A stretch of DNA of 13,124 bases. It comes from a virus. Positions 519 to 13,124 of the stretch are shown here, in pieces. The stretch's first letter is position 1; the number at the start of each line of letters is the position of its first letter. A model generated the notes under the pieces. It worked only from the letters and a program-made list of their open reading frames with translations. It did no database searches and was not told where the DNA came from. A program made the translations under genes and the position numbers. Location: the UHGV virus genome UHGV-1724027; one strand, given 5' to 3'.

Positions 519-548
519 AGACCCTCCTTTTAAGGATATTTATTCAAA

Positions 549-1343
549 TTATACTCTTGCACCATATATTGTACCAACTTTAGTCCAAGTTGGAGCATTA
601 CCAGTAACAGCTTTACCAGCCGCACCGGGGGAGTTCGAATAGCCGCTCAATCTAACCGCATCCTTACCTCGTTCACCAACGTTACCGCCATCGCCGCCGT
701 AGTATCCAACGCCGGAATACATTTTTCCGCCTGCACCTGGAGATGTTAAAGATGCCGATGATCCCGGGGCTGCTGCGCCATTATTGCCACCAGCTCCGAA
801 AGGACGTCCACCGCCACCGCCAGAAACGTATTTACCTCCCCATCCATTATCAGTTGATTGGGCGCCACCACCGCCACCACCGCCAGCAATCGCTCCATTA
901 TTAGTGATTCGTAGACGAGTACCTATACCATTGTTAATTGCAGTACCGCCAGCTTGCCCTGCCTGGTTTCCCGCTTGCGCGCCACGACCACCACGACCAT
1001 ATACTGTTACGCCACCATTTATAATAAGCGTTACATAAGCATTAGTTAATGAACTAGGAAAATCTAAGCAAGGTTGCCCAGCTGATGAAGAAACAATATT
1101 TCCTGTAATAGTAACAACAACAGGAGTACTACCTTGAGATTTGAGATAATTTATTAGCGTGTCTTTATTATATGAATTACTAGCGCCAATACTGTAATAT
1201 ACTTCTTTAGATTGCCCAGCCATTGAACTCATCCAACCGGGAACTGAAACACGAACTGCTCTCATCGCAGCATCCATCCAACGTTGTCCAGTTTCATTCA
1301 CGGCAGATTCGCCAATCCAGCCAGGAACACCTACAATTGCCAT
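549..1343 (-). CDS. 38: gp38 receptor-recognising adhesin of the T2/T6 type (264 aa), with glycine-rich motifs alternating with short variable segments
   Basis: The N-terminus MAIVGVPGWIGESAVNETGQRWM resembles the conserved gp37-attachment domain of T2-like gp38 as I recall it. Residues ~109-227 are poly-Gly blocks (GRGGRG, GGGGGGG, GGGGGRPFGAGG, GGDGG) separated by short non-Gly inserts. ATG at complement of 1341..1343 with an AAGGA RBS. At 264 aa it fits T2-type gp38 (~260 aa), not the 183-aa T4 gp38 assembly chaperone. Confidence 0.9.
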   Translation of the reverse strand: MAIVGVPGWIGESAVNETGQRWMDAAMRAVRVSVPGWMSSMAGQSKEVYYSIGASNSYNKDTLINYLKSQGSTPVVVTITGNIVSSSAGQPCLDFPSSLTNAYVTLIINGGVTVYGRGGRGAQAGNQAGQAGGTAINNGIGTRLRITNNGAIAGGGGGGGAQSTDNGWGGKYVSGGGGGRPFGAGGNNGAAAPGSSASLTSPGAGGKMYSGVGYYGGDGGNVGERGKDAVRLSGYSNSPGAAGKAVTGNAPTWTKVGTIYGARV

Positions 1344-1354
1344 TAAAAATCCTT

Positions 1355-1372
1355 AGAGGGCCGAAGCCCTCT
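1355..1372 (-). other. Stable RNA hairpin with UUCG tetraloop in the 37-38 intergenic spacer (mRNA stem AGAGGGC-UUCG-GCCCUCU)
   Basis: Perfect 7-bp inverted repeat around a TTCG loop, read directly from the sequence. It lies immediately 3' of the gene 37 stop and is followed by AAGGA (the gene 38 RBS) and then TTTTT. Because the U-run is not adjacent to the stem, this is more likely an mRNA-stability or translation-modulating structure than a strong terminator. Confidence 0.55.
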
Positions 1373-1373
1373 T

Positions 1374-4300
1374 TTACATAAGTTTAGATTCAAGTTCTTT
1401 TACACGAGAAGAAAGTGTTTTCACAGCTTCAACCAGAAGAGCAATCTGGGATTGAGAAGAAACAGTGAGTATTTTATTACCCTTAATATCTTCAACTTCA
1501 CGAACTGCTTCTGGTAAAACATCTTGCAGTGTTTGAGCCACAATACCCGCTTCAGTTTGAACAATTTCACCGCCTATATAGTCAGCTTTATCATAGATTA
1601 AACCATCAAGCTGTTCAACCTTTTCAAGAGCATTTTCAATAGGTCTGAAATTAGATTTCAAACGAATATCAGAACGAATATAAACGTTTGGGGCATTTAT
1701 ATTCATGTCAGAATAAGTGTCACCCGTTTGGAATCTCATTCGGCGTGCGGCATTAGTAATGATATCAAGAACTCCGTCAGCGGATTGTTTAATTCCGGTA
1801 TCATTATCACCAAATGCTATACTATTTCCACCAAGTGCGTTATTGATATTAATACCAAATGAATTTGTTTGATTAATACCAGCTACAGTAGCATTATTTA
1901 CTACAAAGCGGTTAGCTCCACCTGGAGTCTTTTCAAAGTAAGCAATATAGTTAGTGTCATCGGCAATTTCAATGCGGTTACCGCGAGAAGCATCACCAGC
2001 ATGAAATATTCTCATATTTCTCGGGTTCGCACCGGACTTATCAAAGTTAATAGAACCATTATCTTTGACGTTTATGCTATTATAGAATAAAGCAGCGCTG
2101 CGAACAGCTATGCCATTATTCATCATCACTTCGCCGGTTGTTAAGTTAATTGCGAAAGGACGTTTACTATTCCAATCACCATTAACAGTTGCTGCGCCAT
2201 CGGTGGCATTTTTATCTGTAAACAGAATATAAAAACTGCCGCCGTCATTTCGTAACATTGTAGCCACAGAACCAGTTTTATCGGCATTGCTTCTGATACG
2301 AATACCGGTTTGGCTATTAATAGCTATTTCAGAATCGGCTTCATAACGCTTCACACCGTTAGGGGTAGGAGCCAAGTTGTTCAGAACACTAGCAACCTGT
2401 CCTTGAATAGCCGTCTCAGGAAGTTCAACCGCAGTTTCTGTTGCACCCGGTTGGTCCGTTGCAAATATCTGATTAATGGTAGCATTAGGAGTAGCATAAT
2501 AAGAAACTGCTAACGCCTGAGCATAAGTACCAACGTTTACATAGATGTCATAAACATCGCCTGATGTATTGACCGTTGCAACATTCTTAATACCCTGACC
2601 GATATCCATCGACCAAACAACAGCGTTAATACCTTTCGGGTTATTGTTCGAAGTTCTTAAAACAATTTTCGAAGTAACGCATTGGTGTGGGGTGTTGACA
2701 TTATATCCATTACCACCAGCAATTTCGAATGTGACGGTTGAAGTGGATTGTGGCATTGTTACAGTGGCTAATTTATACCAACCGCCAGTACCTGAATAAG
2801 AAACCATTCGGGTATTGACTTTACGGTCTAGTGTCAAGTTCAAGTTAGCAAAGTTAGGTAATGAACCGCCCGTGATATTACCGTCAGTACCAATACGAAC
2901 CGTACCAGCGCCTAATTTACCAGGGGAAATAAAATCACCGGTTCTATTGAATTCCCACCCGAAGTCCTTAATTAAAGGGCCCGTCGAATCATTATCACCA
3001 CCTTCATGATAATGAACTCTAAAGTTACCACCATTAATTAGAGTTCCTAAAGAATAACAGCTATTTCCTTGAACATATCGTTGTTTCAAAATAGGAACAT
3101 ATGTACTAGTATCAGTTCTATCAATATTCATATAGAACGGCGCACGTACATTTTCATTATTTTGGGAAGCAAAAGAACCCGCTCCGGCCGGACGTGCTCT
3201 ATCAGTACATTCTGCATCAATGTATGCCGACTGACCTATCTGCATTCTGAAATTAGGAGAAATGCGACTATTACTAGTAACAACAACAAGTTTGTTATCA
3301 TTGTCCACTGTAATCATATTACCGCCAGCACCATCGTCACCTAACGTGACAGAATGACGCATTTGCACCATACCATTATTAAGGCTGATACTTAATGGGC
3401 GAAGATTACTTATTCCGCCAGATTCACCTGCATCTTTAGGAGTTGGAATAATATGCAATGCCGCCTCTGAACGACGGAAAATAGCACCGTATTCAGCATT
3501 CCAAATTCTTAATGCATCTGCCGTTCCACCGAATTTAGCCTGACCATTTACAGATAATCCATTATTTGCAACTAAACTTGATTCAGTAACAATAGAACCA
3601 GATGATGTAATACCACCAGAAGTTAATAAACCACCATTAACTCGAAATTGAATAGGTCCGACGGTAGAACCTGATCCGGGAGCAACTCGTTGAGAATAAA
3701 AATGGTAACCTTGTCCATCTGATACTTCAAAAACTGTTTCACGGGAACGATCGCCAGAAGCGTTAAATGAATTACCCCATGCTTTAACAGTTACATAGCT
3801 TTTATTCTGACCAGCACGAGTACCGCCTTCCCACAAAATTTGCTTAGTGCCATCAATTGTAGTAGTTGGAGCGAATGTTAGCCCAGCAGTAGAATTATTA
3901 GCTGCTAAATATATGCCGTTATATATTGAAAGCTGCTTAACAGATGTAATACCGCCATCAGCATAAAACATTACATTATTAGAGCCAGTTACCAATTTCA
4001 AAATACCCGGGTTAACTTCCATGCCTTCTTGAGTATTAATATTAGTTTTTCCTTTACCACGGAAATAGTGGTTCATTTTTCCGCCAGAATTATATCCAAT
4101 ATGGGTTTGACCGTCTCCAGCAGTGTTTTCATCAGCCTGTGTTTGAACCGATAAAAACGCGGCGTTCGTTCCAGGCATATTCCATGTTCCGCCTTGGTCT
4201 TCTGAACGTCCAAATAATGCTTTACGAGTACTACGGAAACTGTCAGGAGTAATAGACGCGATAGAAAGACCATTAGCAACTAAATCATATACACCAGATC

Positions 4301-5285
4301 TTTTATATGATACACCAGTTGCGGCATCTCCAATGACTATATAGCATTCACCCATTGCTCCAGTGGAGCCGTAATTATTAATGTTTTCATCTGTTGTAAT
4401 TGTACCAATTGCGAGTGAGCGTCGCAACACTAAAGACCCATCATTGCGAAGGCCCATTTGTTTATTAACGGCTGTATTACCGGTCCACCAAGACAGTTCA
4501 TCACTTTTTCCGGTTTGTGCAGAAGCTAATTCATGATAAATCGTACCACCAGATTTTGCACGGAATTTACGAAGGTAATTAATTCCGTTTGTTTCACCAG
4601 TTCCAGGATAAACATATTGAACTAATGACTGCGAATCGTATTGTCCAAATGCTTTTGTGTCAAATACTATAGTCTTTGTATTGATTTGCGGAGCAGAAAC
4701 TACCCCAGTAGCCGAATTAATATTACCAGAAGCAGAAATATTTCCATCTGTTACTGTCAAACTTCCTGTATCAACAACAAATCCACCATCTCTACGAAAT
4801 GTCCAGTATTTTGAAGTTCCCGATTCGTTGATATAATGAATTTTAAAACTACCTTCGTTTACTAACGTACCAACAGAAAAAGTTCCATCTTTATAGCGTT
4901 GTTTAATCAGCGGATGATATTCTGAAACGGAAGTAGTTGAGCTCAAATCTGTAAAGACAGGAGCTTTATTTAGGTGTTGATTTGCCCATGCACCATTACC
5001 AGCTGTTTTAGGTAAAAATTCAATATATTTTCCTGCATAAACAAACTGATTTCCATTGAGATTATATGTACCGTTCTGTAAATAATCTCCAGTTTGTGTG
5101 ATATTTCCACTGATATTACCGCCAGCGGAAATGCTTAAATCAATGATATTTCCTGAATCATCTTTAGTAAAAATTGTTCTATCTTTTAAGTTTATAGCCA
5201 ATTCGCCTTCGGCTAATACTGAAGCAGCAGGACGTGCACCTGCGGTTTTGCTTCTTTTAAATTGTATTTGTTTTAAAGTAGCCAT
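1374..5285 (-). CDS. 37: gp37, long tail fiber distal subunit (1303 aa); T4-like N-terminal and central parts, with a C-terminal self-cleaving chaperone module
   Basis: N-terminus [48 protein letters not shown] matches my recollection of T4 gp37. The internal segment [31 protein letters not shown] parallels a segment of gp34. The C-terminus carries the motif S-D-I-R-L-K. ATG at complement of 5283..5285 preceded by a GAGGA RBS, 8 nt after the gene 36 stop. Confidence 0.95.
1377..1670 (-). other. Predicted C-terminal intramolecular chaperone / autoproteolytic module of gp37 (peptidase S74-like), C-terminal 98 residues; predicted cleavage between Ser1205 and Asp1206
   Basis: The motif ...NVYIRS|[34 protein letters not shown]... 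is seen in the translation. It resembles the S-D-x-R-L-K signature that I associate with self-cleaving chaperone domains of phage fibers and tailspikes (K1F endosialidase, T5 pb1). The exact cleavage site is an inference. Confidence 0.6.
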
Positions 5286-5293
5286 AAGTCCTC

Positions 5294-5953
5294 TTAATAA
5301 TAGCCGAAATCTTGAACAGAATCCTTAATTACGATTTGGTCAAATCGCGGAACGTGTGAAGGTTGAGATGCAGGATTCTGTGAGAAAAAGTTTGGTGCGG
5401 TTAAGTTTCCAGTCATAGTGTCTCCTTTACGGAAAACTCTAGAATCCGCATTTGCCGTAACAGTATTTATTGCTCCATCAACATAGTCCTTTCTAGTAAG
5501 GTCATTCGCTGCTATAGGAGCAGCTGCATCACTTCTTACTTGACCTGCTGCCGACACAACACCTTTTGTACTAATATCACCATTACGTGTATTAATTACC
5601 ACAGTTCGGGCTGCTGAACCTTGCGATGATTTAAAACCAATACCATACCACGAAACAATATCCATATTTGTAGTATCATACGTGGCATTATCGCCAGGAC
5701 CAGCAAAAATACCATTGTCACCTGATCCTGCGCCAGGAACAGTCATTCCTTTATTAAAAATTACTTTATTTAAATATGTACCACCATTAGCTTTAGAAAC
5801 GAAATCGTTATCAACAGCTTGTGGTTTATTATATTCTGAATATATTTTAAATGATTTATAGAGTACATCGTCACCGGCTGGATTCAATGGAAAATTTCCT
5901 TGATGCCAAATGACAGAGCCTCCAGTTGTTGAACCTACTTTTAAATCAGCCAT
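5294..5953 (-). CDS. 36: gp36, long tail fiber distal connector (hinge) protein (219 aa)
   Basis: Size and position between genes 35 and 37 match T4 gp36 (221 aa). It is directly preceded by a late promoter box and an RBS, and its stop is 8 nt from the gene 37 start. Confidence 0.9.
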
Positions 5954-5976
5954 TGTATGCCCCTTTATTTTAATAG

Positions 5977-5984
5977 TATTTATA
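5977..5984 (-). promoter_or_regulatory. T4-type late promoter box TATAAATA (minus strand), upstream of gene 36
   Basis: Exact match to the T4 late-promoter consensus TATAAATA on the minus strand (plus-strand TATTTATA), about 25 nt upstream of the gene 36 ATG and immediately after the 35-36 terminator. Confidence 0.75.
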
Positions 5985-6010
5985 AAGAAAAAGGGAACCC
6001 GAAGGCTCCC
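5985..6010 (-). terminator. Rho-independent terminator between genes 35 and 36 (mRNA stem GGGAGCC-UUCG-GGUUCCC followed by UUUUUCUU)
   Basis: A 7-bp stem (one G-U pair) with a UUCG tetraloop, followed directly by a T-rich run on the minus strand, starting 5 nt after the gene 35 stop. Confidence 0.7.
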
Positions 6011-6015
6011 TCAAT

Positions 6016-7131
6016 TTATACTTCTCTAAATTCTTGCCCAAACACTTTACCAGTTTTAGACGATGCTTGTGTAGGAAGTACCATTATATCCGGAGGTGAA
6101 GCAGATTCACAGATATAATTAACACGAATACCATTGACGCCAAATTCAGCAGGTTTTGAAATACCGCCGTTTCTTGATACTTCAGAAAAGCTTAAATTTC
6201 TCATGCCACCTTGGCCAGCTTGTGCAGTTCTTTGTGCATATATCGTAAATCCTACAGCGTTTTCTGGAACAACTACATAATCTTCCTTTAATTCCCATGA
6301 CCCAGCTTGTCCAGTAAATTCAGCCTGTGTTGAAGAAATATATCCGTTAGATGCATTATAAAATCGAATGGATATATTCGTAGTTCCAAGAGCAAGTAAA
6401 TCAGCATCAGCATATAACTGAGCTTTAAGATAAAGAACATCACCAGGAATTAAATTATAATCAGATAATTTACTTATAGCAGCTGAAGTTGGTAGACGCG
6501 CAATTTCGTTATTAGTTCCACCAACCGCTGACATAAATTGCTCAACGCTTTCATACGTTCTTCTTGGAAACCCGGTAGCTCCGACATCTTCTAAACTGTC
6601 AAATACAACATCTAAAATAGTTTGATAATCATCTGTGCTTTTTCTATTACTTAATTTAACATGCTCTAATGCGATAGCTCTTTTAGAAGAAGTATAAAAA
6701 GCAGCATATGATACGTCGAATCTTGACAATATAGAATCAGATGGAAAAGCAGACGTTCCGGCGGTTCTTAACCAAGATACTACTTCAGGAGGAAAATTAA
6801 CCTTTCCGTTAGTTAATATAGCAACAATTCGATTATTCGTCAAAGAATTCATAAAACTAACAAAAGCAGCTGATGTAGTATCATTTGAAGTCGAAAAAGC
6901 ATATGACTTACTATCAACTAATGCTCCGGTGGAAGGGTCAAAAACTCTTAAATGAAGGCCTGCGCTAAATGTTTGACTTCCTACAGGATTATCCTGAAAT
7001 TTAACGTATGGTCCTGCAGTAGAAAGCGGGCAAGAACCCGCTATGCTTATTTTATATCTTACTGAATTGCTTTCCGATAAAAACGGCGTTTGGACATATC
7101 CTTGTCCAAACTCTGCCATAAATTTTTCCAT
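6016..7131 (-). CDS. 35: gp35, long tail fiber hinge protein joining proximal and distal half-fibers (371 aa)
   Basis: Size (371 aa against 372 in T4) and position between 34 and 36. An AAGAGG RBS lies in the 8-nt spacer after the gene 34 stop. Confidence 0.9.
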   Translation of the reverse strand: MEKFMAEFGQGYVQTPFLSESNSVRYKISIAGSCPLSTAGPYVKFQDNPVGSQTFSAGLHLRVFDPSTGALVDSKSYAFSTSNDTTSAAFVSFMNSLTNNRIVAILTNGKVNFPPEVVSWLRTAGTSAFPSDSILSRFDVSYAAFYTSSKRAIALEHVKLSNRKSTDDYQTILDVVFDSLEDVGATGFPRRTYESVEQFMSAVGGTNNEIARLPTSAAISKLSDYNLIPGDVLYLKAQLYADADLLALGTTNISIRFYNASNGYISSTQAEFTGQAGSWELKEDYVVVPENAVGFTIYAQRTAQAGQGGMRNLSFSEVSRNGGISKPAEFGVNGIRVNYICESASPPDIMVLPTQASSKTGKVFGQEFREV

Positions 7132-7139
7132 AATACCTC

Positions 7140-9785
7140 TTATTCAACCCATTCAAATTTAACCGTTTTATTCACTGGGTCAGGAATAATGCGAACATTA
7201 CCAATTCGCAAGAAATCACGAATAGTAAGATTCCCCATTGTAGCATTATCAGATGGTAAAGCACCGATATCAGATGGTTGAGGAGGGTTACCTCCGTCAA
7301 ATACCTGAACAAAACTTGACCAAGAGTTTTTGGTTTTCTGCCATGTACGTGTCCAGCGAGTGGTACGCGCTTCTGGCGTCGTTGGATAAGTAATCCAATC
7401 TTGGTAAAGCGAATCAAGTGTGTTACCAAACTGAGTCAGTGTACCAGGAGATTTAACTTCTTCGCCACGTTCTAAGTATGGAAGCCCAGTCACTTCATTA
7501 GTTTTTTCAACCATTTTAAAATAACCCGGGAACTGGTTATAAGTGGCTGAATCGTTAATATCGATTGACCAGAATCCTACAGTATCAGATGTTGGCGCAC
7601 GGGTGTATAAATCAGATGTTTTAGTACCCTGAGAACGAATTCTCGAGTTAACAGTTAAACCACCTGAATTTATAGTAGCACCTTTGGCAATGATTAAGCC
7701 TTCACCAATCGTAACCTGACCAGATGCATTATTAATAGCTAAAGGACGTAATCCATTAAATCCGCCAGTCTGATCACCAGATGCAGTAAGCATAAAATAG
7801 GTATTAGCAGCATCATTGCGAATAAAGAATCCGTAATCACCACTAATTGCTCTAAATGCATTTGCAGACTTGCTAATGAATTCACCATTGGCTGTAACTG
7901 AACGACCGAATGTTGCAACACCATTCACATTCATCAAACCGGAAGCATTAATATTTATTGGCATCACAGTACCATTAATGCTAAACGCTATATTACCGTC
8001 TTTATTACGTTGAGAATAAAAGTGATTAGACGTTTCATCACCAACTTCAAATACAGTAGAACGTGTTGTATCTGAACCGCCGCCAAACTGATTTCCCCAA
8101 ACTCTGATAGTCATCGTCTGTGCTGGGTTAGTTCCAGTTTGAGGTCCTTTCTCAAAAATCAGACGAGTTGCAGTTCCAGTATTAGAAATAGTTAATGTGC
8201 TGTTTGCCGAAACTGATCCGCCAAACGTAGCAGTACTAGATGATACAAGAGGGGCACTCAGATTCGTTTGTTGGGTTAAGGTTAGTGAACCATTAACCGT
8301 CTGTGCAATATCCCTACGAATGAACTGAGATGAATCTAGACCATCCAATAAATTACTATCTACAGCTTTTGCTTTTAATGGCAAATAATTTGCTAATACA
8401 CGGTTTAATTCATATGGTGATACTGCATAGCTATTTTTCTCGTATAGCTCTAAGTCCTGCGTAGAACCAGCTGTATCATTACCAACAAATGTAATTGAAC
8501 CAGATGAAGTTTTAACAAAGCCTCTTATCGCAGTAGTAGCTGCCCAAGTAGGTTCACTCTGCACAATCCATTTTAAATTTTTTGGAGATACAGCAGTATT
8601 TGCTGATGTTCCAGTCACAGTTTCAGACTGAGTTGCAACTTTAATAACACCTTCTTGCGATTCGGTAGATTTAGTACCTAAAAGCTTTTTAGGAGTTATT
8701 AAAACATTATCTAATGTTCCTGCAGCAGCTTCAACCTGTGTAGCTACACGAAGTGTACCACGCTGTGTCTCATTTGCTTCAAGAATATTAAGGGTATAAT
8801 GGTCCCAGAGAGTTCCTGATTCAACTAATCCAGATAGAGCAACAACAGAAGTACGATCAGTACTATTAAATCTGGTTTTAATTTTTAATGGTGTAGAGAT
8901 ACGAGTATCGTCGACGCCTGCGTCGAATTCAACTTGTGTAGCAATTTCAGCTATACCACTTAAACTTTCAGTTGCTCTACGGTCATTTAAAGTTTTAGGA
9001 GTGACTGCACGAGTATAATCAGTTCCTGTATTAACTTCACTTTGCGTAGCAATTTCAATTAAACCAATTCTTCCATCGGTTGATGTCTTTTTATGTAACG
9101 TTTCTGGCGTTACAACAGCATTTGCCCATCCTTCCTGACTTTGTCCAGCAATTACTTCACTTTCAACTGCTAAAATTACTGCACCTTGCTGCGTTGGAGT
9201 AGCTTTATACTGATCCAAAGCTTTAGGTGAAACAACTAAATTATTAGTGTTTTTATTATAAACATTCGTACCATTTAATTCACGGCTAGAAGCTGGAGTA
9301 GCACCTGCAGTAGATACAAAAGTTACAATACCAGATAATGATTCAGAACCTTGACGAGCTTGAAGCTTTTTAGGAGTGATGATTGTAGTGTCATCAGTAC
9401 CTGTATTAGTTTCCTGCTGCGTAGCAATTTCTGCGACACCTCTGCGAGTTTCTGTAGCAGTTCTTTCATTCAGCTTTTTAGGAGTGATGATAAGGTCATC
9501 AGCAAAAGAGAATGTGGTGTTCTGATTCACTTGAGCAGTAGTTGCTATTCTTGCGATACCTCTGCGAGTTTCAGTAGCAGTACGGTTAGCTAATGTTTCT
9601 GGAGTAATTGCTAATTCTTTTTGTGGAGAATTTTCTAAATCGACGTTAGCTTGAGCTTGTGTAGCTAAAGCAATTACGCCTAATCTTGCTCTAGTAGAAT
9701 CATTTAAAGAATCTACTCTTTCGACAGTTGGAACGTTTTGCTGTACAACCCAATATTTTCCATCAGAATCTTCAATATAAGCAAG
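7140..9785 (-). CDS. 34: gp34, long tail fiber proximal subunit: C-terminal ~881 codons, in a different frame from the N-terminal part because of a 1-nt frameshift
   Basis: The supplied ORF 7140..9530 starts at a GTG only because there is no in-frame start codon further upstream. I translated this frame by hand upstream to ~9785 and it stays open, reading LAYIEDSDGKYWVVQQNVPTVERVDSLNDSTRARLGVIALATQAQANVDLENSPQKELAITPETLANRTATETRRGIARIATTAQVNQNTTFSFADD..., a plausible continuation of gp34. The C-terminus ...KTVKFEWVE matches my recollection of T4 gp34. Confidence 0.85.
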   Translation of the reverse strand, partial: LAYIEDSDGKYWVVQQNVPTVERVDSLNDSTRARLGVIALATQAQANVDLENSPQKELAITPETLANRTATETRRGIARIATTAQVNQNTTFSFADDLIITPKKLNERTATETRRGVAEIATQQETNTGTDDTTIITPKKLQARQGSESLSGIVTFVSTAGATPASSRELNGTNVYNKNTNNLVVSPKALDQYKATPTQQGAVILAVESEVIAGQSQEGWANAVVTPETLHKKTSTDGRIGLIEIATQSEVNTGTDYTRAVTPKTLNDRRATESLSGIAEIATQVEFDAGVDDTRISTPLKIKTRFNSTDRTSVVALSGLVESGTLWDHYTLNILEANETQRGTLRVATQVEAAAGTLDNVLITPKKLLGTKSTESQEGVIKVATQSETVTGTSANTAVSPKNLKWIVQSEPTWAATTAIRGFVKTSSGSITFVGNDTAGSTQDLELYEKNSYAVSPYELNRVLANYLPLKAKAVDSNLLDGLDSSQFIRRDIAQTVNGSLTLTQQTNLSAPLVSSSTATFGGSVSANSTLTISNTGTATRLIFEKGPQTGTNPAQTMTIRVWGNQFGGGSDTTRSTVFEVGDETSNHFYSQRNKDGNIAFSINGTVMPININASGLMNVNGVATFGRSVTANGEFISKSANAFRAISGDYGFFIRNDAANTYFMLTASGDQTGGFNGLRPLAINNASGQVTIGEGLIIAKGATINSGGLTVNSRIRSQGTKTSDLYTRAPTSDTVGFWSIDINDSATYNQFPGYFKMVEKTNEVTGLPYLERGEEVKSPGTLTQFGNTLDSLYQDWITYPTTPEARTTRWTRTWQKTKNSWSSFVQVFDGGNPPQPSDIGALPSDNATMGNLTIRDFLRIGNVRIIPDPVNKTVKFEWVE
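8700..9700 (-). repeat. Imperfect tandem repeats within gene 34, encoding repeated (A/I)-E-I-A-T-Q...T-G-T-D...I-T-P-K-K-L units
   Basis: Near-identical DNA copies are visible: TGCGACACCTCTGCGAGTTTCTGTAGCAGT (9432..9461) and TGCGATACCTCTGCGAGTTTCAGTAGCAGT (9552..9581), 120 bp apart. AGCTTTTTAGGAGTGATGAT occurs at 9364..9383 and 9472..9491. A motif of the form TG(C/T)GTAGCAATTTC recurs near 8937, 9046 and 9414. The protein shows at least six matching peptide repeats. Confidence 0.7.
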
Positions 9786-11008
9786 TTGTAAACTGGAACA
9801 TAATTAGTTTCACCGTTAAAAACTAATTCTTGGACTGTAACCCATTCAGCTTCAGGCGGATATTCTGAGCGTTTTGGGAATTGCAGTAATTGAACTGAAG
9901 AAGCAATTTTATCTTCACCGGCAGCTTTGATTTTAACTGTTTGTCCTTTTCTCATGTAATTCATGGAAATTTTAACAGTATCACCAACAGAAATATCAGT
10001 AGGAAGCTGAAGCTCAATTGTTTGGGTTGTTCCGTTATTCGCACCAAATACCATAACTTCTTCGTTTGGACGAATATTAGAATTAGTCGTTATAATGCGT
10101 AAACGCGCTTTACTATCCCCGTCAAACAATCTCCACAATTTCTCATTATCATCAAACATCAAGAAACCGTCAATCGATGTACGGCCTTCAATGGAATGAG
10201 TTCCAACTTCTTGTACTGAAGTCGTTTCATCGTATGTAGTAACAATTGTATGATAAAGTGGATTTAGTTTATCTAAATCGACGAAATTAATAATATCTCC
10301 ATGATTAGCAAATCTCGGAAGTTTAATATTTATCGGTGCAGCAGAAGTAAATCTACGCACGATAAAATCATTAGATTGCGCTTGATAAGTATTCGCTGGT
10401 GTTACAACTACAGCTTCTCTACTATAATCAGCTACATACATTTGCCACAGACGATTACTAAAAATTAAAACTAGCTGTGACTTTGGATGAGTCATTAGTA
10501 CTGAACGTACCTGTTCACCTCTAAAGTTTACAATACTTTGCACTGGAGCTACAATTAAAACTTGGTTAACTCCAGGTTTTCCTCCAATATCTTGGAGAAC
10601 GATAGTATCACCGTCAATTGGGGTAGATGGTAAAGTAAATGTAATATCATTACCAGCTGCAGTGTTAACCGAAATAGCTTCACCGGATTTTAATTGATAT
10701 GAACCAGATGAGACTGTAATCCAGTTAGCATCGGTACGTAATGCTCTCCAGCGTCCGCTATTAAAAGCTCCTGCCGGTTTTGGAATATCATTTATAGCAG
10801 CCCAAAAGCGGTTATCATAAATGATTACAAAATCTTTTAAATATCCACGAGTTGGATCGTATTGTTGAACTGTGTTTTCTTGAATTAAGTAATCAACGTT
10901 AACACCGTCAGTTCCTACGGTACGATCAGCTAAAGCTACGTTGATTATTTTATCGCCACCTGCGTCCAGACCATCTTCTGCTCTGAACTTTCTTTTAATC
11001 TCGGCCAT
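9713..11008 (-). CDS. 34: gp34, long tail fiber proximal subunit: N-terminal fragment (431-aa ORF; first ~406 aa native, last 25 aa out-of-frame read-through to a TAG)
   Basis: N-terminus MAEIKRKFRAEDGLDAGGDKIINVALADRTVGTDGVNVDYLIQENTVQQYDPTRGYLKDF... matches my recollection of T4 gp34. After ...ETNYVPV the translation becomes low-complexity (YNLLILKILMENIGLYSKTFQLSKE*) while the -1 frame continues the fibre sequence. 406 + 2 + 881 = 1289 codons, the known length of T4 gp34. Confidence 0.85.
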   Translation of the reverse strand: MAEIKRKFRAEDGLDAGGDKIINVALADRTVGTDGVNVDYLIQENTVQQYDPTRGYLKDFVIIYDNRFWAAINDIPKPAGAFNSGRWRALRTDANWITVSSGSYQLKSGEAISVNTAAGNDITFTLPSTPIDGDTIVLQDIGGKPGVNQVLIVAPVQSIVNFRGEQVRSVLMTHPKSQLVLIFSNRLWQMYVADYSREAVVVTPANTYQAQSNDFIVRRFTSAAPINIKLPRFANHGDIINFVDLDKLNPLYHTIVTTYDETTSVQEVGTHSIEGRTSIDGFLMFDDNEKLWRLFDGDSKARLRIITTNSNIRPNEEVMVFGANNGTTQTIELQLPTDISVGDTVKISMNYMRKGQTVKIKAAGEDKIASSVQLLQFPKRSEYPPEAEWVTVQELVFNGETNYVPVYNLLILKILMENIGLYSKTFQLSKE

Positions 11009-11042
11009 TCTCCCGGGCTCCTATTGTGTTTTCAATAATAAG

Positions 11043-11050
11043 TATTTATA
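11043..11050 (-). promoter_or_regulatory. T4-type late promoter box TATAAATA (minus strand), upstream of gene 34
   Basis: Exact TATAAATA on the minus strand, about 35 nt upstream of the gene 34 ATG. An AGGAG RBS lies between the box and the start codon. Confidence 0.75.
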
Positions 11051-11053
11051 CTT

Positions 11054-11083
11054 GTTTACTTTAAGATTTGGATGGTATATAAT
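11054..11083 (+). promoter_or_regulatory. Putative sigma70/T4 early-type promoter for rnh (-35 GTTTAC at 11054..11059; -10 TATAAT at 11078..11083; 18-nt spacer)
   Basis: GTTTAC followed 18 nt later by TATAAT, about 30 nt upstream of the rnh ATG. This resembles the T4 early-promoter pattern as I recall it. It partly overlaps the divergent late promoter for gene 34. Confidence 0.4.
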
Positions 11084-11112
11084 AGAAATCTCACTAATTG
11101 AACGAGGTTCAT

Positions 11113-12030
11113 ATGGATTTAGAAATGATGTTGGATGAAGATTACAAAGAAGGAATTTGCTTTATTGACTTTAGTCAAATTGCGCTTTCAACTGCTTTAG
11201 TAAACTTCCCAGATAAAGAAAAAATTAATTTATCAATGGTTCGTCATTTGATATTGAACTCAATTAAGTTTAATGTCAAAAAAGCAAAAACGCTTGGATA
11301 CACTAAAATTGTACTGTGTATTGATAACGCGAAATCTGGATACTGGCGTCGTGATTTCGCTTATTATTATAAGAAAAACCGTGGAAAAGCACGAGAAGAA
11401 TCTACTTGGGACTGGGAAGGTTATTTTGAATCCAGCCATAAAGTTATAGATGAATTGAAAGCTTATATGCCATACATTGTTATGGATATTGATAAGTATG
11501 AAGCGGATGACCACATTGCTGTTTTGGTTAAAAAGTTCTCTTTAGAAGGACATAAGATTTTAATCATTTCATCGGATGGTGACTTTACACAGCTTCACAA
11601 ATACCCAAATGTTAAGCAATGGTCACCGATGCACAAGAAATGGGTTAAAATTAAAAGCGGTTCTGCTGAAATTGACTGTATGACTAAAATCCTTAAAGGC
11701 GACAAAAAGGATAACGTTGCTTCAGTTAAAGTACGATCTGACTTCTGGTTTACCAGAGTTGAAGGTGAACGAACTCCTTCAATGAAAACATCAATCGTTG
11801 AAGCTATTGCTAATGACCGTGAGCAAGCTAAGGTGCTTCTCACAGAATCTGAATATAATCGTTATAAAGAAAATTTAGTTCTAATTGATTTTGATTATAT
11901 TCCTGATAATATTGCTTCAAACATTGTGAATTACTATAATTCATATAAATTACCACCGCGTGGCAAAATTTATTCATATTTTGTAAAAGCGGGTCTTTCT
12001 AAATTAACTAATAGCATTAATGAATTTTGA
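11113..12030 (+). CDS. rnh: RNase H (5'-3' exonuclease / flap endonuclease, FEN family), 305 aa
   Basis: Translation MDLEMMLDEDYKEGICFIDFSQIALSTALVNFPDKEKINLSMVRHL... matches my recollection of T4 RNase H. The supplied ORF begins at a TTG at 11098; the ATG at 11113 with a GAGGT RBS 5 nt upstream gives the expected 305 aa. Confidence 0.93.
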   Translation: MDLEMMLDEDYKEGICFIDFSQIALSTALVNFPDKEKINLSMVRHLILNSIKFNVKKAKTLGYTKIVLCIDNAKSGYWRRDFAYYYKKNRGKAREESTWDWEGYFESSHKVIDELKAYMPYIVMDIDKYEADDHIAVLVKKFSLEGHKILIISSDGDFTQLHKYPNVKQWSPMHKKWVKIKSGSAEIDCMTKILKGDKKDNVASVKVRSDFWFTRVEGERTPSMKTSIVEAIANDREQAKVLLTESEYNRYKENLVLIDFDYIPDNIASNIVNYYNSYKLPPRGKIYSYFVKAGLSKLTNSINEF

Positions 12031-12038
12031 GGTGAATA

Positions 12039-12308
12039 ATGGCTAAAAAAGAAGTGGTTGAATTTGATGAAGCTATCCATGGCGAAGACTTGGCTAAATT
12101 TATTAAAGAAGCATCTGATCATAAACTGAAAATTTCCGGTTATAATGAACTGATTAAAGATATTCGAATTCGTGCCAAAGATGAACTTGGTGTTGATGGT
12201 AAGATGTTTAATCGTCTATTAGCTTTGTATCATAAAGATAATCGTGATGTGTTTGAAGCTGAAACTGAAGAGGTAGTTGAACTTTATGACACAGTTTTCT
12301 CTAAATGA
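12039..12308 (+). CDS. dsbA: DsbA, double-stranded DNA-binding protein (89 aa)
   Basis: An 89-aa acidic/basic small protein immediately downstream of rnh, matching T4 dsbA in size and position. ATG at 12039 with a GAGGTGA RBS. Confidence 0.85.
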   Translation: MAKKEVVEFDEAIHGEDLAKFIKEASDHKLKISGYNELIKDIRIRAKDELGVDGKMFNRLLALYHKDNRDVFEAETEEVVELYDTVFSK

Positions 12309-12624
12309 TATTCGTCCGGTCGATGAGACCGGTCTTTCAGAAAAAGAACTTTCAATTAAGAAAGAAAAGGATGAAATAGCAAAGCTTCTTGATCGTCAAG
12401 AAAATGGATTTATTATTGAAAAAATGGTAGAAGAGTTTGGAATGAGTTATCTTGAAGCTACGACAGCATTCTTGGAAGAAAATTCTATTCCTGAAACTCA
12501 ATTTGCTAAATTTATTCCTTCGGGTATAATTGAAAAAATTCAGTCAGAAGCTATTGACGAAAATCTTTTACGTCCTTCTGTTGTTCGTTGTGAAAAAACT
12601 AATACATTAGATTTTCTACTATGA
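12286..12624 (+). CDS. 33: gp33, late-transcription accessory protein (sigma co-activator), 112 aa
   Basis: Translation MTQFSLNDIRPVDETGLSEKELSIKKEKDEIAKLLDRQENGFIIEKMVEEFGMSYLEATTAFLEEN... matches my recollection of T4 gp33. The ATG at 12286 lies inside the 3' end of dsbA (23-nt overlap) and gives 112 aa; the supplied ORF starts earlier at a TTG at 12277. Confidence 0.9.
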   Translation: MTQFSLNDIRPVDETGLSEKELSIKKEKDEIAKLLDRQENGFIIEKMVEEFGMSYLEATTAFLEENSIPETQFAKFIPSGIIEKIQSEAIDENLLRPSVVRCEKTNTLDFLL

Positions 12625-13124
12625 TTAAACTCCGCATGCCTGCTGGTGGTGAAAGATACATTGATGGTAAATCAGTTTATAAATTATACTTAATGATAAA
12701 ACAACACATGAATGGAAAGTATGATGTAATTAAGTATAATTGGTGCATGCGGGTGTCTGATGCCGCTTATCAAAAGCGAAGGGATAAGTATTTTTTCCAG
12801 AAGTTATCAGAAAAATATAAATTAAAGGAACTTGCTTTAATCTTTATAAGTAATTTGGTTGCTAACCAAGATGCTTGGATTGGTGACATCTCTGACGCTG
12901 ATGCACTTGTGTTTTATCGTGAATATATCGGACGCTTAAAACAAATTAAATTTAAGTTTGAAGAAGATATTCGCAACATTTATTATTTTAGTAAAAAAGT
13001 TGAAGTTTCTGCTTTTAAAGAAATCTTTGAGTATAATCCAAAGGTTCAATCAAGCTATATTTTTAAACTACTTCAATCGAATATAATTTCATTTGAGACG
13101 TTTATCTTGCTTGATTCATTTTTA
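12621..13124 (+). CDS. 59: gp59, helicase loader (loads the gp41 helicase), 5' portion only; the ORF runs off the right edge of the window (168 codons present of ~217)
   Basis: Translation MIKLRMPAGGERYIDGKSVYKLYLMIKQHMNGKYDVIKYNWCMRVSDAAYQKRRDKYFFQKLSEKYKLKELALIFISNLVANQDAWIGDISDADALVFYREYIGRLKQIKFKFEEDIRNIYYFSKKVEVSAFKEIFEYNPKVQSSYIFKLLQSNIISFETFILLDSF matches my recollection of T4 gp59. Its ATG overlaps the gene 33 stop (ATGA). It is absent from the ORF track because it is truncated by the window edge. Confidence 0.9.
   Translation, partial: MIKLRMPAGGERYIDGKSVYKLYLMIKQHMNGKYDVIKYNWCMRVSDAAYQKRRDKYFFQKLSEKYKLKELALIFISNLVANQDAWIGDISDADALVFYREYIGRLKQIKFKFEEDIRNIYYFSKKVEVSAFKEIFEYNPKVQSSYIFKLLQSNIISFETFILLDSFL

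Follow-up and report, generated by a model that had tools for sequence, protein, structure and literature searches.

The distal subunit of the long tail fiber in this phage (virus genome UHGV-1724027) carries an intramolecular chaperone (IMC) of the Peptidase S74 type at its C-terminus, an assignment supported by profile match, conserved residues, and predicted fold. In the window, by which we mean the whole 13,124-nucleotide stretch that was analyzed, gene 37 was identified from the ORF list and its translation at 1374..5285 on the minus strand, encoding 1303 amino acids followed by a stop codon. Its last 99 residues, Ser1205 to Met1303 (1377..1673, minus strand), were assigned to the IMC module on the evidence of Pfam PF13884, phmmer, a PDB profile search, and AF2/Foldseek. 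We consider it very likely that this module is a Peptidase S74/endosialidase-type chaperone that aids trimerization of the fiber and then cleaves itself off so that gp38 can dock. Self-cleavage of gp37, the exact bond, the chaperone function, and the docking of gp38 are all inferred from the homologues in T2, S16, T5, and K1F.

The SDIRLK motif begins at residue 1205 in the translation, with the Ser1205 codon at window positions 1673-1671 and the Met1303 codon at 1379-1377. An earlier note on this DNA had quoted the sequence exactly and recognized an S74-type signature in it, and its estimate of about 98 residues holds as well, since 98 residues follow Ser1205 and 99 are counted when Ser1205 is included. 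The span it gave, 1377-1690, does cover the module, but its 314 nt are out of codon phase, with 17 nt preceding the Ser codon. A chance match or a gene on the opposite strand at 1377-1690 was rejected, as there were zero plus-strand ORFs of at least 60 aa and the E-values were far below chance.

The profile search that the earlier note had proposed for the gp37 C-terminus gave a clear match to Pfam Peptidase_S74 (PF13884). Residues 1205-1262, the Peptidase_S74 core (1500..1673, minus strand), aligned to positions 1-58 of the 58-position profile with an E-value of 1.4e-13 and 51.3 bits, relative to a gathering cutoff of 22 bits, and the isolated 128-aa C-terminus scored 55.9 bits. With the IMC domain as phmmer query, 20,816 proteins of the library scored E<=1e-3. 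Conservation was assessed on 156 aligned domains, drawn from 150 representatives of clusters formed at 50% identity. These homologues were taken from an exhaustive search of representatives and not from a search with residues 1139-1303, whose matches were for the most part short fragments of prophage tail proteins, aligned to the region that precedes the chaperone. Asp1206 was present in all 156 aligned domains and Ser1205 and Lys1210 in 155 each, while Gly1247, Ala1250, Gln1251, and Pro1258 were likewise near-invariant. The sequence S1205-D-I-R-L-K1210 thus has the S-D-x-x-x-K family motif at the start of the domain. The earlier note had numbered the lysine 1211; residue 1211 is a Ser, and the conserved Lys is at 1210. 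As in gp37, the domain is C-terminal in most of the 150 representatives, where the match stops no more than a few residues short of the protein end.

Proteins of known structure were found with a profile built from 30 diverse domains, which matched S16 gp37 (6f45_A, 1e-17), a tail fiber (8jov, 2e-10), the MyRF ICA (7dc3, 7e-10), and the GA-1 IMC (3gud, 4e-5) in the PDB. In the profile alignment, SDIRLK of gp37 lines up with SDRRIK in S16, SDERHK in GA-1, and SDERLK in 8jov. The same 30-sequence profile did not find 3GW6 or 4UW8 in the PDB by sequence, and 3GW6 surfaced only in the fold search. Single-sequence phmmer searches of the PDB with gp37 or its C-terminus picked up S16 gp37 and neither K1F nor T5.

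An AF2 model of a 114-aa query, calculated as a monomer (pLDDT 91.2, pTM 0.77), contains the elements H-E-E-H-E-E followed by a 26-residue helix, and so matches the IMC fold, in which a long helix at the C-terminus comes after a small alpha/beta unit. This helix (H88-113 of the query) corresponds to gp37 residues ~1277-1302, encoded at 1380..1457 on the minus strand, and it is expected from the T5 and K1F structures to form a trimeric coiled coil. In a Foldseek search of the PDB, the only matches with a probability above 0.9 were IMC/ICA domains (7dc3, 3gw6, and 3gud). The best structural match was the MyRF ICA 7DC3 (TM 0.69, E 7e-7, 25% identity), in which the same fold takes a compact form. 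MyRF is a membrane-bound eukaryotic transcription factor, and its cleavage frees the N-terminal factor instead of maturing a fiber. The K1F structure 3gw6 was matched with Foldseek probabilities of 0.94-1.0, at TM values of 0.4-0.5 with partial overlap.

The IMCs of the K1F endosialidase (PDB 3GW6) and T5 pb1 (PDB 4UW8) are the founding and mechanistically characterized members of the family. They have a Ser-Lys dyad with the Lys at Ser+5, trimerization-dependent autoproteolysis, and a central coiled coil, but they are longer than the gp37 module (T5, 133 residues) and bear long beta-hairpin "tentacles". Their client domains are unrelated to the gp37 tip, being the beta-helix stalk of a sialidase in one case and the bullet domain of T5 in the other. 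Given its short length and the loose alignment of its model with K1F, the gp37 module probably lacks the long hairpins seen in the T5 and K1F chaperones. The model is closer to the MyRF ICA than to K1F/T5 (TM 0.4-0.5), which may point to a minimal "tentacle-less" unit that performs only coiled-coil registration and self-cleavage and does not wrap its client. We regard this as speculative and rather unlikely, and nothing in the data requires it. Were it the case, release of a tentacle-less IMC might be coupled mechanistically to the hand-over of the tip to gp38, which would make it a distinct sub-mechanism within the family.

Conservation of the Ser and homology to S16, T5, and K1F place the predicted scissile bond between Arg1204 and Ser1205, whose two codons lie at 1671..1676 (minus strand). 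S16 gp37, from the closest solved relative, is cut at DLNVS^SDRRIKK according to PMC7917993. In T5 the Thr1263-Ser1264 bond is cut and the Ser departs with the chaperone, as it does in K1F (PMC4690869), and the crystal chain of the GA-1 IMC (3gud_A) starts at the Ser equivalent to Ser1205. Since S16, T5, and K1F are cut before the Ser, mature gp37 is predicted to end at Arg1204, and not at Ser1205 as the earlier note had it. A genuine S74 chaperone could instead be cut after its Ser, which would leave Ser1205 as the mature C-terminus; we judge this improbable, given that all of these relatives lose the Ser with the chaperone and that density for a Ser-retaining end was graded "less convincing" in PMC4690869.

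The codon of Lys1210 is located at 1656..1658 on the minus strand. At Ser+5, this residue is predicted to serve as general base in the Ser-Lys dyad, a role based on its conservation and its equivalence to T5 Lys1269. In T5, Lys1269 activates Ser1264, and a Ser1264Ala change blocks cleavage (PMC4690869). T5 and K1F also have a "folding sensor", made up of an Arg from the neighboring chain plus an Asp, for which no counterpart could be located in the gp37 tip by sequence alignment; R1184, R1185, R1187, D1189, and D1193 are upstream candidates for sensor or oxyanion-hole residues in a tip that is unalignable with T5 or K1F. Removal of the C-terminal piece by a different protease, of phage or host origin, with the S74-like domain serving only in folding or registration, would agree with the early T2 work, which, as cited in PMC3157838, mentions only "proteolytic processing". 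This is nevertheless very improbable, as retention of both the Ser and the Lys of the dyad in nearly all of these diverse homologues would be difficult to account for if they played no part in catalysis, and the T5 Ser-to-Ala change stops processing during expression in E. coli without other phage proteins (PMC4690869).

By analogy with these systems, self-cleavage of gp37 would begin with the C-terminal helices of the chaperone bringing three nascent gp37 chains into register and thereby nucleating folding of the trimeric distal fiber. Once the trimer had folded correctly, Ser1205, activated by Lys1210, would attack the Arg1204-Ser1205 bond in each chain, and the 99-aa chaperone trimer would then dissociate. 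The exposed ...NVYIR tip would be capped by one copy of gp38 through the Trp-bearing attachment domain at the gp38 N-terminus, and the docked gp38 would set receptor specificity.

The partner required by this scheme is encoded directly downstream. Gene 38 (549..1343, minus strand) starts 30 nt past the gene 37 stop and encodes a T2-type Gly-rich adhesin of 264 aa, identified by Pfam (GP38, 3e-72; Gp38_N, 8e-18 for residues 1-42), PDB matches (9v85_A, 4e-55; 6f45_D, the S16 gp38, 7e-46), and 61% identity to T2 gp38, in agreement with the length, composition, and adhesin type proposed earlier. The N-terminal attachment domain, residues 1-42 (1218..1343, minus strand), contains Trp9, Trp22, and Trp37, and a docking role for such Trp "prongs" of the gp38 N-terminus is described in PMC7917993. 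On the gp37 side, the NVYIR strand, residues 1200-1204 (1674..1688, minus strand), is the predicted new C-terminal tip and docking surface. It agrees with the consensus found in relatives directly before the cleavage Ser, (D/N)-V-Y-I-R, and an equivalent DVYIR strand has been predicted to be the gp38 docking tip in the fPS phages (PMC7917993). The NVYIR strand together with W9, W22, and W37 of gp38 has the features of T2/S16-type docking, which would be expected to take place here as well. Only two differences from T2 fall within the first 55 residues of gp38. Overall identity to T2 in the specificity domain reaches only ~60%, so the receptor may differ.

As the earlier note had suggested, these features support placing the fiber tip, by sequence comparison, in the T2/T6/S16 type, with an IMC-bearing gp37 and a gp38 adhesin, and not in the T4 type. 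T2 has the same gene order (36-37-38-t), and T2 gp37, which at 1341 aa is 38 aa longer than gp37 of the window, has the same Pfam architecture, with Gp34_trimer and, at the C-terminus (1243-1300), Peptidase_S74. Identity to T2 gp37 is 87% over the last 99 aa, 79% over the last 165 (aa 1139-1303), and 68% over aa 1-1066 of the window protein, while residues 1051-1176 of T2 gp37 do not align with the region at ~1067-1138. The cleavage context is identical in T2, including |SDIRLKSNF, and the IMC domain is 100% identical to that of phage slur07. Processing of T2 gp37 by proteolysis, followed by capping with gp38, is reported in PMC3157838. The closest solved structure is the S16 gp37 tip with gp38 (PDB 6F45), whose gp37 tip and IMC were matched both by a single-sequence search (E 5e-8) and by the profile (1e-17). 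S16 and window gp37 have in common the motif S-D-x-R-(I/L)-K, although the S16 IMC is longer (113 aa, compared with 99), its cut follows DLNVS instead of NVYIR, and the tip domain ahead of it shows only weak similarity. Autocleavage of the S16 IMC uncovers the gp38 docking surface, according to PMC7917993.

The T2 and S16 comparisons also bear on whether the domain might stay in the mature fiber, as a permanent cap or a non-cleaving relic, with gp38 attaching elsewhere. S74-like domains can lose activity in principle, and nothing more specific speaks for a retained domain. It is hardly credible here, as all conserved residues are intact, the domain is so close to that of a gp37 known to be processed, and gp38 of S16 docks on the very surface laid bare by IMC release. 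The reading in which the IMC cleaves itself off before gp38 docks remains by far the preferred one.

T4 differs from the window in this region. T4 gp37 matches Collar and Phage_fiber in Pfam and has no S74 domain, whereas window gp37 matches neither Collar nor Phage_fiber, and the two proteins are 57% identical over aa 1-~820 only. The T4 gp37 tip carries an Fe-binding His-x-His needle (HSHS/HTHS/HSHY/HSHT/HSHS/HTHT/HGHT). The absence of such His-rich repeats, which had been claimed for this gp37, was borne out, as its sole HxH motif is HYH at 758-760, within the shaft region common to T4. The chaperones of the T4 tip are gp57A and gp38; T4 gp38, 183 aa long and unrelated to gp38 of the window, serves in assembly and is absent from the virion. 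Window gp37 therefore does not have a T4-type long tail fiber tip. T4 and the window are alike in the homologous ~820 N-terminal residues of gp37, in genomic position, and in flanks.

The T4-like flanks around a host-range cassette, also noted earlier, were evident by blastn against T4, with 98.7% identity at 1-543 and 95.2% at 5136-13124. The variable cassette relative to T4 (544..5135, no strand assigned) comprises gene 38 and gene 37 minus its first ~50 codons. Within it, 2838-4655 matched T4 at 74-78% in patches and 544-2837 had no blastn match to T4, leaving gene 38 and distal gene 37 without a T4 counterpart. The flanking genes are nearer T4 (95-99%) than T2 (79-85%). The gp38-adhesin arrangement is the predominant form, and it is the distal gene 37 and gene 38 of T4 that were replaced (Trojet et al. 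2011, PMC3157838). Together with a gp37 IMC, this arrangement has already been described in T2, T6, S16, the fPS phages, and many other Tequatrovirus phages, so that the main value of the finding lies in correct annotation and fiber engineering, and no new question is opened. The mature distal fiber should be annotated as residues 1-1204, and the host-range determinant of the phage would be gp38, not the gp37 tip. Host-range swaps or recombinant expression would have to leave the 99-aa chaperone in place, Ser1205 and Lys1210 included, to secure fiber folding and exposure of the gp38 docking site.

A terminator-like scan found a UUCG-tetraloop hairpin, AGAGGGC-UUCG-GCCCUCU (1355..1372, minus strand), between the gene 37 stop and the gene 38 ribosome-binding site, with an RNA folding energy of -13.4 kcal/mol and a z of -2.1. 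A pattern search of the window for T4-type late promoter boxes found none directly before gene 37 or gene 38, and genes 36, 37, and 38 are thus probably co-transcribed. A TATAAATA box lies upstream of gene 36 (5977..5984, minus strand). Such boxes sit 24-35 nt upstream of the gene 36 and gene 34 starts, positions that are suggestive, although their number (two, with a shuffled expectation of 1.8) is not above chance. Gene 34 contains, in a T-run at window ~9789-9792, a real or assembly-derived 1-nt deletion that breaks the reading frame in two.

The window is the long-tail-fiber locus of a T4-like phage (Tequatrovirus), with Escherichia phage vB_Eco_Solly as its best match over the full length (94% identity across 96% of the window). 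The minus strand carries the 5' part of holin t (1-~518), g38 (549-1343), g37 (1374-5285, an ORF of 1303 aa), g36 (5294-5953), g35 (6016-7131), and g34 (7140-11008), and rnh, dsbA, g33, and the start of g59 lie on the plus strand.

The distal long tail fiber subunit gp37 had been proposed to end in a peptidase S74-type intramolecular chaperone (IMC), and this assignment held. The SDIRLK sequence quoted in the earlier note is present exactly and starts at Ser1205 (1673-1671); the last residue of the protein is Met1303 (1379-1377). The profile search suggested there was positive: Pfam Peptidase_S74 (PF13884, "Chaperone of endosialidase") covers gp37 residues 1205-1262 over its whole 58 positions (E 1.4e-13; score 51.3 bits, curated cutoff 22). 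An exhaustive phmmer search with residues 1190-1303 against 1.84 billion cluster representatives yielded 20,816 proteins at E<=1e-3, of which 341 reached E<=1e-10; the match mostly lies at the C-terminus, in proteins 500-1500 aa long. Among 156 aligned domains from the best 150 representatives of that search, Asp1206 is invariant (156/156), Ser1205 and Lys1210 are each conserved in 155, and Gly1247, Ala1250, Gln1251, and Pro1258 are also near-invariant; the consensus of the five residues preceding the serine is (D/N)-V-Y-I-R. Searching the PDB with a profile of 30 diverse family members recovered S16 gp37 (6f45_A, E 1e-17), a tail fiber (8jov, E 2e-10), the MyRF ICA domain (7dc3, E 7e-10), and the GA-1 neck-appendage IMC (3gud, E 4e-5), whose crystal chain begins at the equivalent serine.

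The predicted fold also agrees with this family. An AlphaFold2 model of the IMC with the family alignment as input was confident (pLDDT 91.2, pTM 0.77) and shows a small alpha/beta unit that leads into a C-terminal helix of 26 residues. Only intramolecular chaperone domains filled the top ranks of a Foldseek search of the PDB, namely MyRF ICA (TM 0.69, E 7e-7), the K1F endosialidase IMC 3gw6 (probability 0.94-1.0), and GA-1 3gud (probability 0.97-0.99), with the remainder at a probability of 0.66 or lower. Because the domain is short, at 99 aa compared to 113 in S16 and 133 in T5, and the model overlaps only partially with the K1F structure, the long tentacle hairpins are probably absent. The feature itself is ordinary, having already been described in T2, T6, S16, fPS phages, and hundreds of sequenced relatives, and 1652 phage records carry the domain by tblastn with its 99 aa; the value of the finding lies in annotation and fiber engineering.

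While the observation was confirmed and its interpretation supported, two one-residue corrections are required. Residue 1211, given as a lysine in the earlier note, is a serine, which places the conserved lysine at Lys1210. The mature end, previously placed at Ser1205, moves to Arg1204 when the cut of characterized homologs is transposed. In T5 pb1, the bond cut is Thr1263-Ser1264, processing is blocked by Ser1264Ala, and the serine is activated by Lys1269 (Ser+5); in both T5 and K1F the serine departs with the chaperone, and for phi29 alone was it modeled as the last mature residue, on weak density (PMC4690869). A second report places autocleavage of the S16 IMC, after trimerization, within the Ser-Ser pair of DLNVS^SDRRIKK, and cleavage at DVYIR^SDGRLK has been predicted for T2-like Yersinia phages (PMC7917993). 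By analogy, we infer self-cleavage, chaperone function, and gp38 docking for this gp37: a cut at Arg1204|Ser1205 would leave a mature protein of 1204 aa and set free the 99-aa chaperone, and NVYIR would form the tip where gp38 could dock through its N-terminal domain (W9, W22, W37). The neighboring-chain Arg/Asp "folding sensor" of T5 and K1F was not located in gp37 by sequence alignment.

As had been suggested, the fiber tip is of the T2 rather than the T4 type. T2 gp37 is 79% identical across the last 165 aa and 87% across the last 99, and its Pfam architecture is the same (S74 at 1243-1300). In contrast, alignment with T4 gp37 stops at residue ~820, and that protein contains Collar and Phage_fiber but no S74 domain. 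The reported lack of H-x-H repeats in the distal region is also correct, as the single such motif (HYH, 758-760) lies inside a shaft segment also found in T4, compared to seven HxH pairs in the T4 tip. The gp38 protein is Gly-rich and 264 aa long, as described, matching Pfam GP38 (3e-72) and Gp38_N (8e-18) as well as S16 gp38 (6f45_D, 7e-46). Its identity to T2 gp38 is 61%, and just two of the first 55 residues differ. The specificity domain (residues ~56-264) shares only ~55-60% identity with T2 and S16 gp38, and the DNA at 628-862 falls out of alignment with Solly, so receptor specificity is not readable from T2.

The locus is a mosaic cassette, as the earlier note held. By blastn, holin t (1-543, 98.7% identity) and the region from the g37 5' end through g59 (5136-13124, 95.2%) are T4-like, g38 and distal g37 (544-2837) have no T4 match, and the middle of g37 (2838-4655) matches patchily at 74-78%. 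T2 DNA is 79% identical in the g38/g37-3' region and 85% at 3423-7785. Within the T2-type group the closest phage varies by segment, with Solly, PaulHMueller, and SA21RB each best for different parts; at protein level the IMC is 100% identical to that of slur07, a phage absent from the best whole-gene matches. According to Trojet et al. 2011 (PMC3157838), the gp38-adhesin arrangement predominates in the T4 superfamily, and the replacement of distal g37 and g38 took place in T4.

Two further segments of gp37 have relatives elsewhere. Residues ~1139-1198 (1691-1871), just before the IMC, match many short "phage tail protein" entries without an S74 domain in E. coli and Salmonella genomes, and this sequence similarity suggests a tip sub-module that gp37 has in common with prophage side tail fibers. 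Residues 509-633 (3387-3761) are homologous to the gp34 C-terminal trimerization domain (Pfam Gp34_trimer, 2e-10; PDB 4uxe/5nxf, E ~1e-15), an internal duplication common to proximal and distal half-fibers that T2 and T4 gp37 also carry.

At 3869 nt, the proximal subunit gene g34 has a length not divisible by three, and it is split into two minus-strand ORFs (9713-11008 and 7140-9530). Alignment to Solly and T4 shows that the run CCAGTTTTAC (~9789-9792) is one T short, which causes the frameshift and the stop at 9713 (affected span 9713-9806). The likeliest cause is a sequencing or assembly error in the homopolymer; a genuine deletion would truncate the proximal half-fiber and leave the phage without functional long fibers.

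Late-promoter boxes of the exact T4 type, TATAAATA, occur on the minus strand upstream of g36 (5977-5984) and g34 (11043-11050), and a pattern search of the window found none before g35, g37, or g38; their number is not above chance, and their placement alone is suggestive. This placement fits co-expression of g36-g37-g38. A stable UUCG-tetraloop hairpin (AGAGGGC-UUCG-GCCCUCU, 1355-1372, minus strand) with a 7-bp GC-rich stem (-13.4 kcal/mol) separates the g37 stop codon from the Shine-Dalgarno sequence of g38 and is followed by AAGGAUUUUU. Similar stable CUUCGG hairpins are known from intercistronic regions of T4, and this one could stabilize the transcript or modulate g38 translation.
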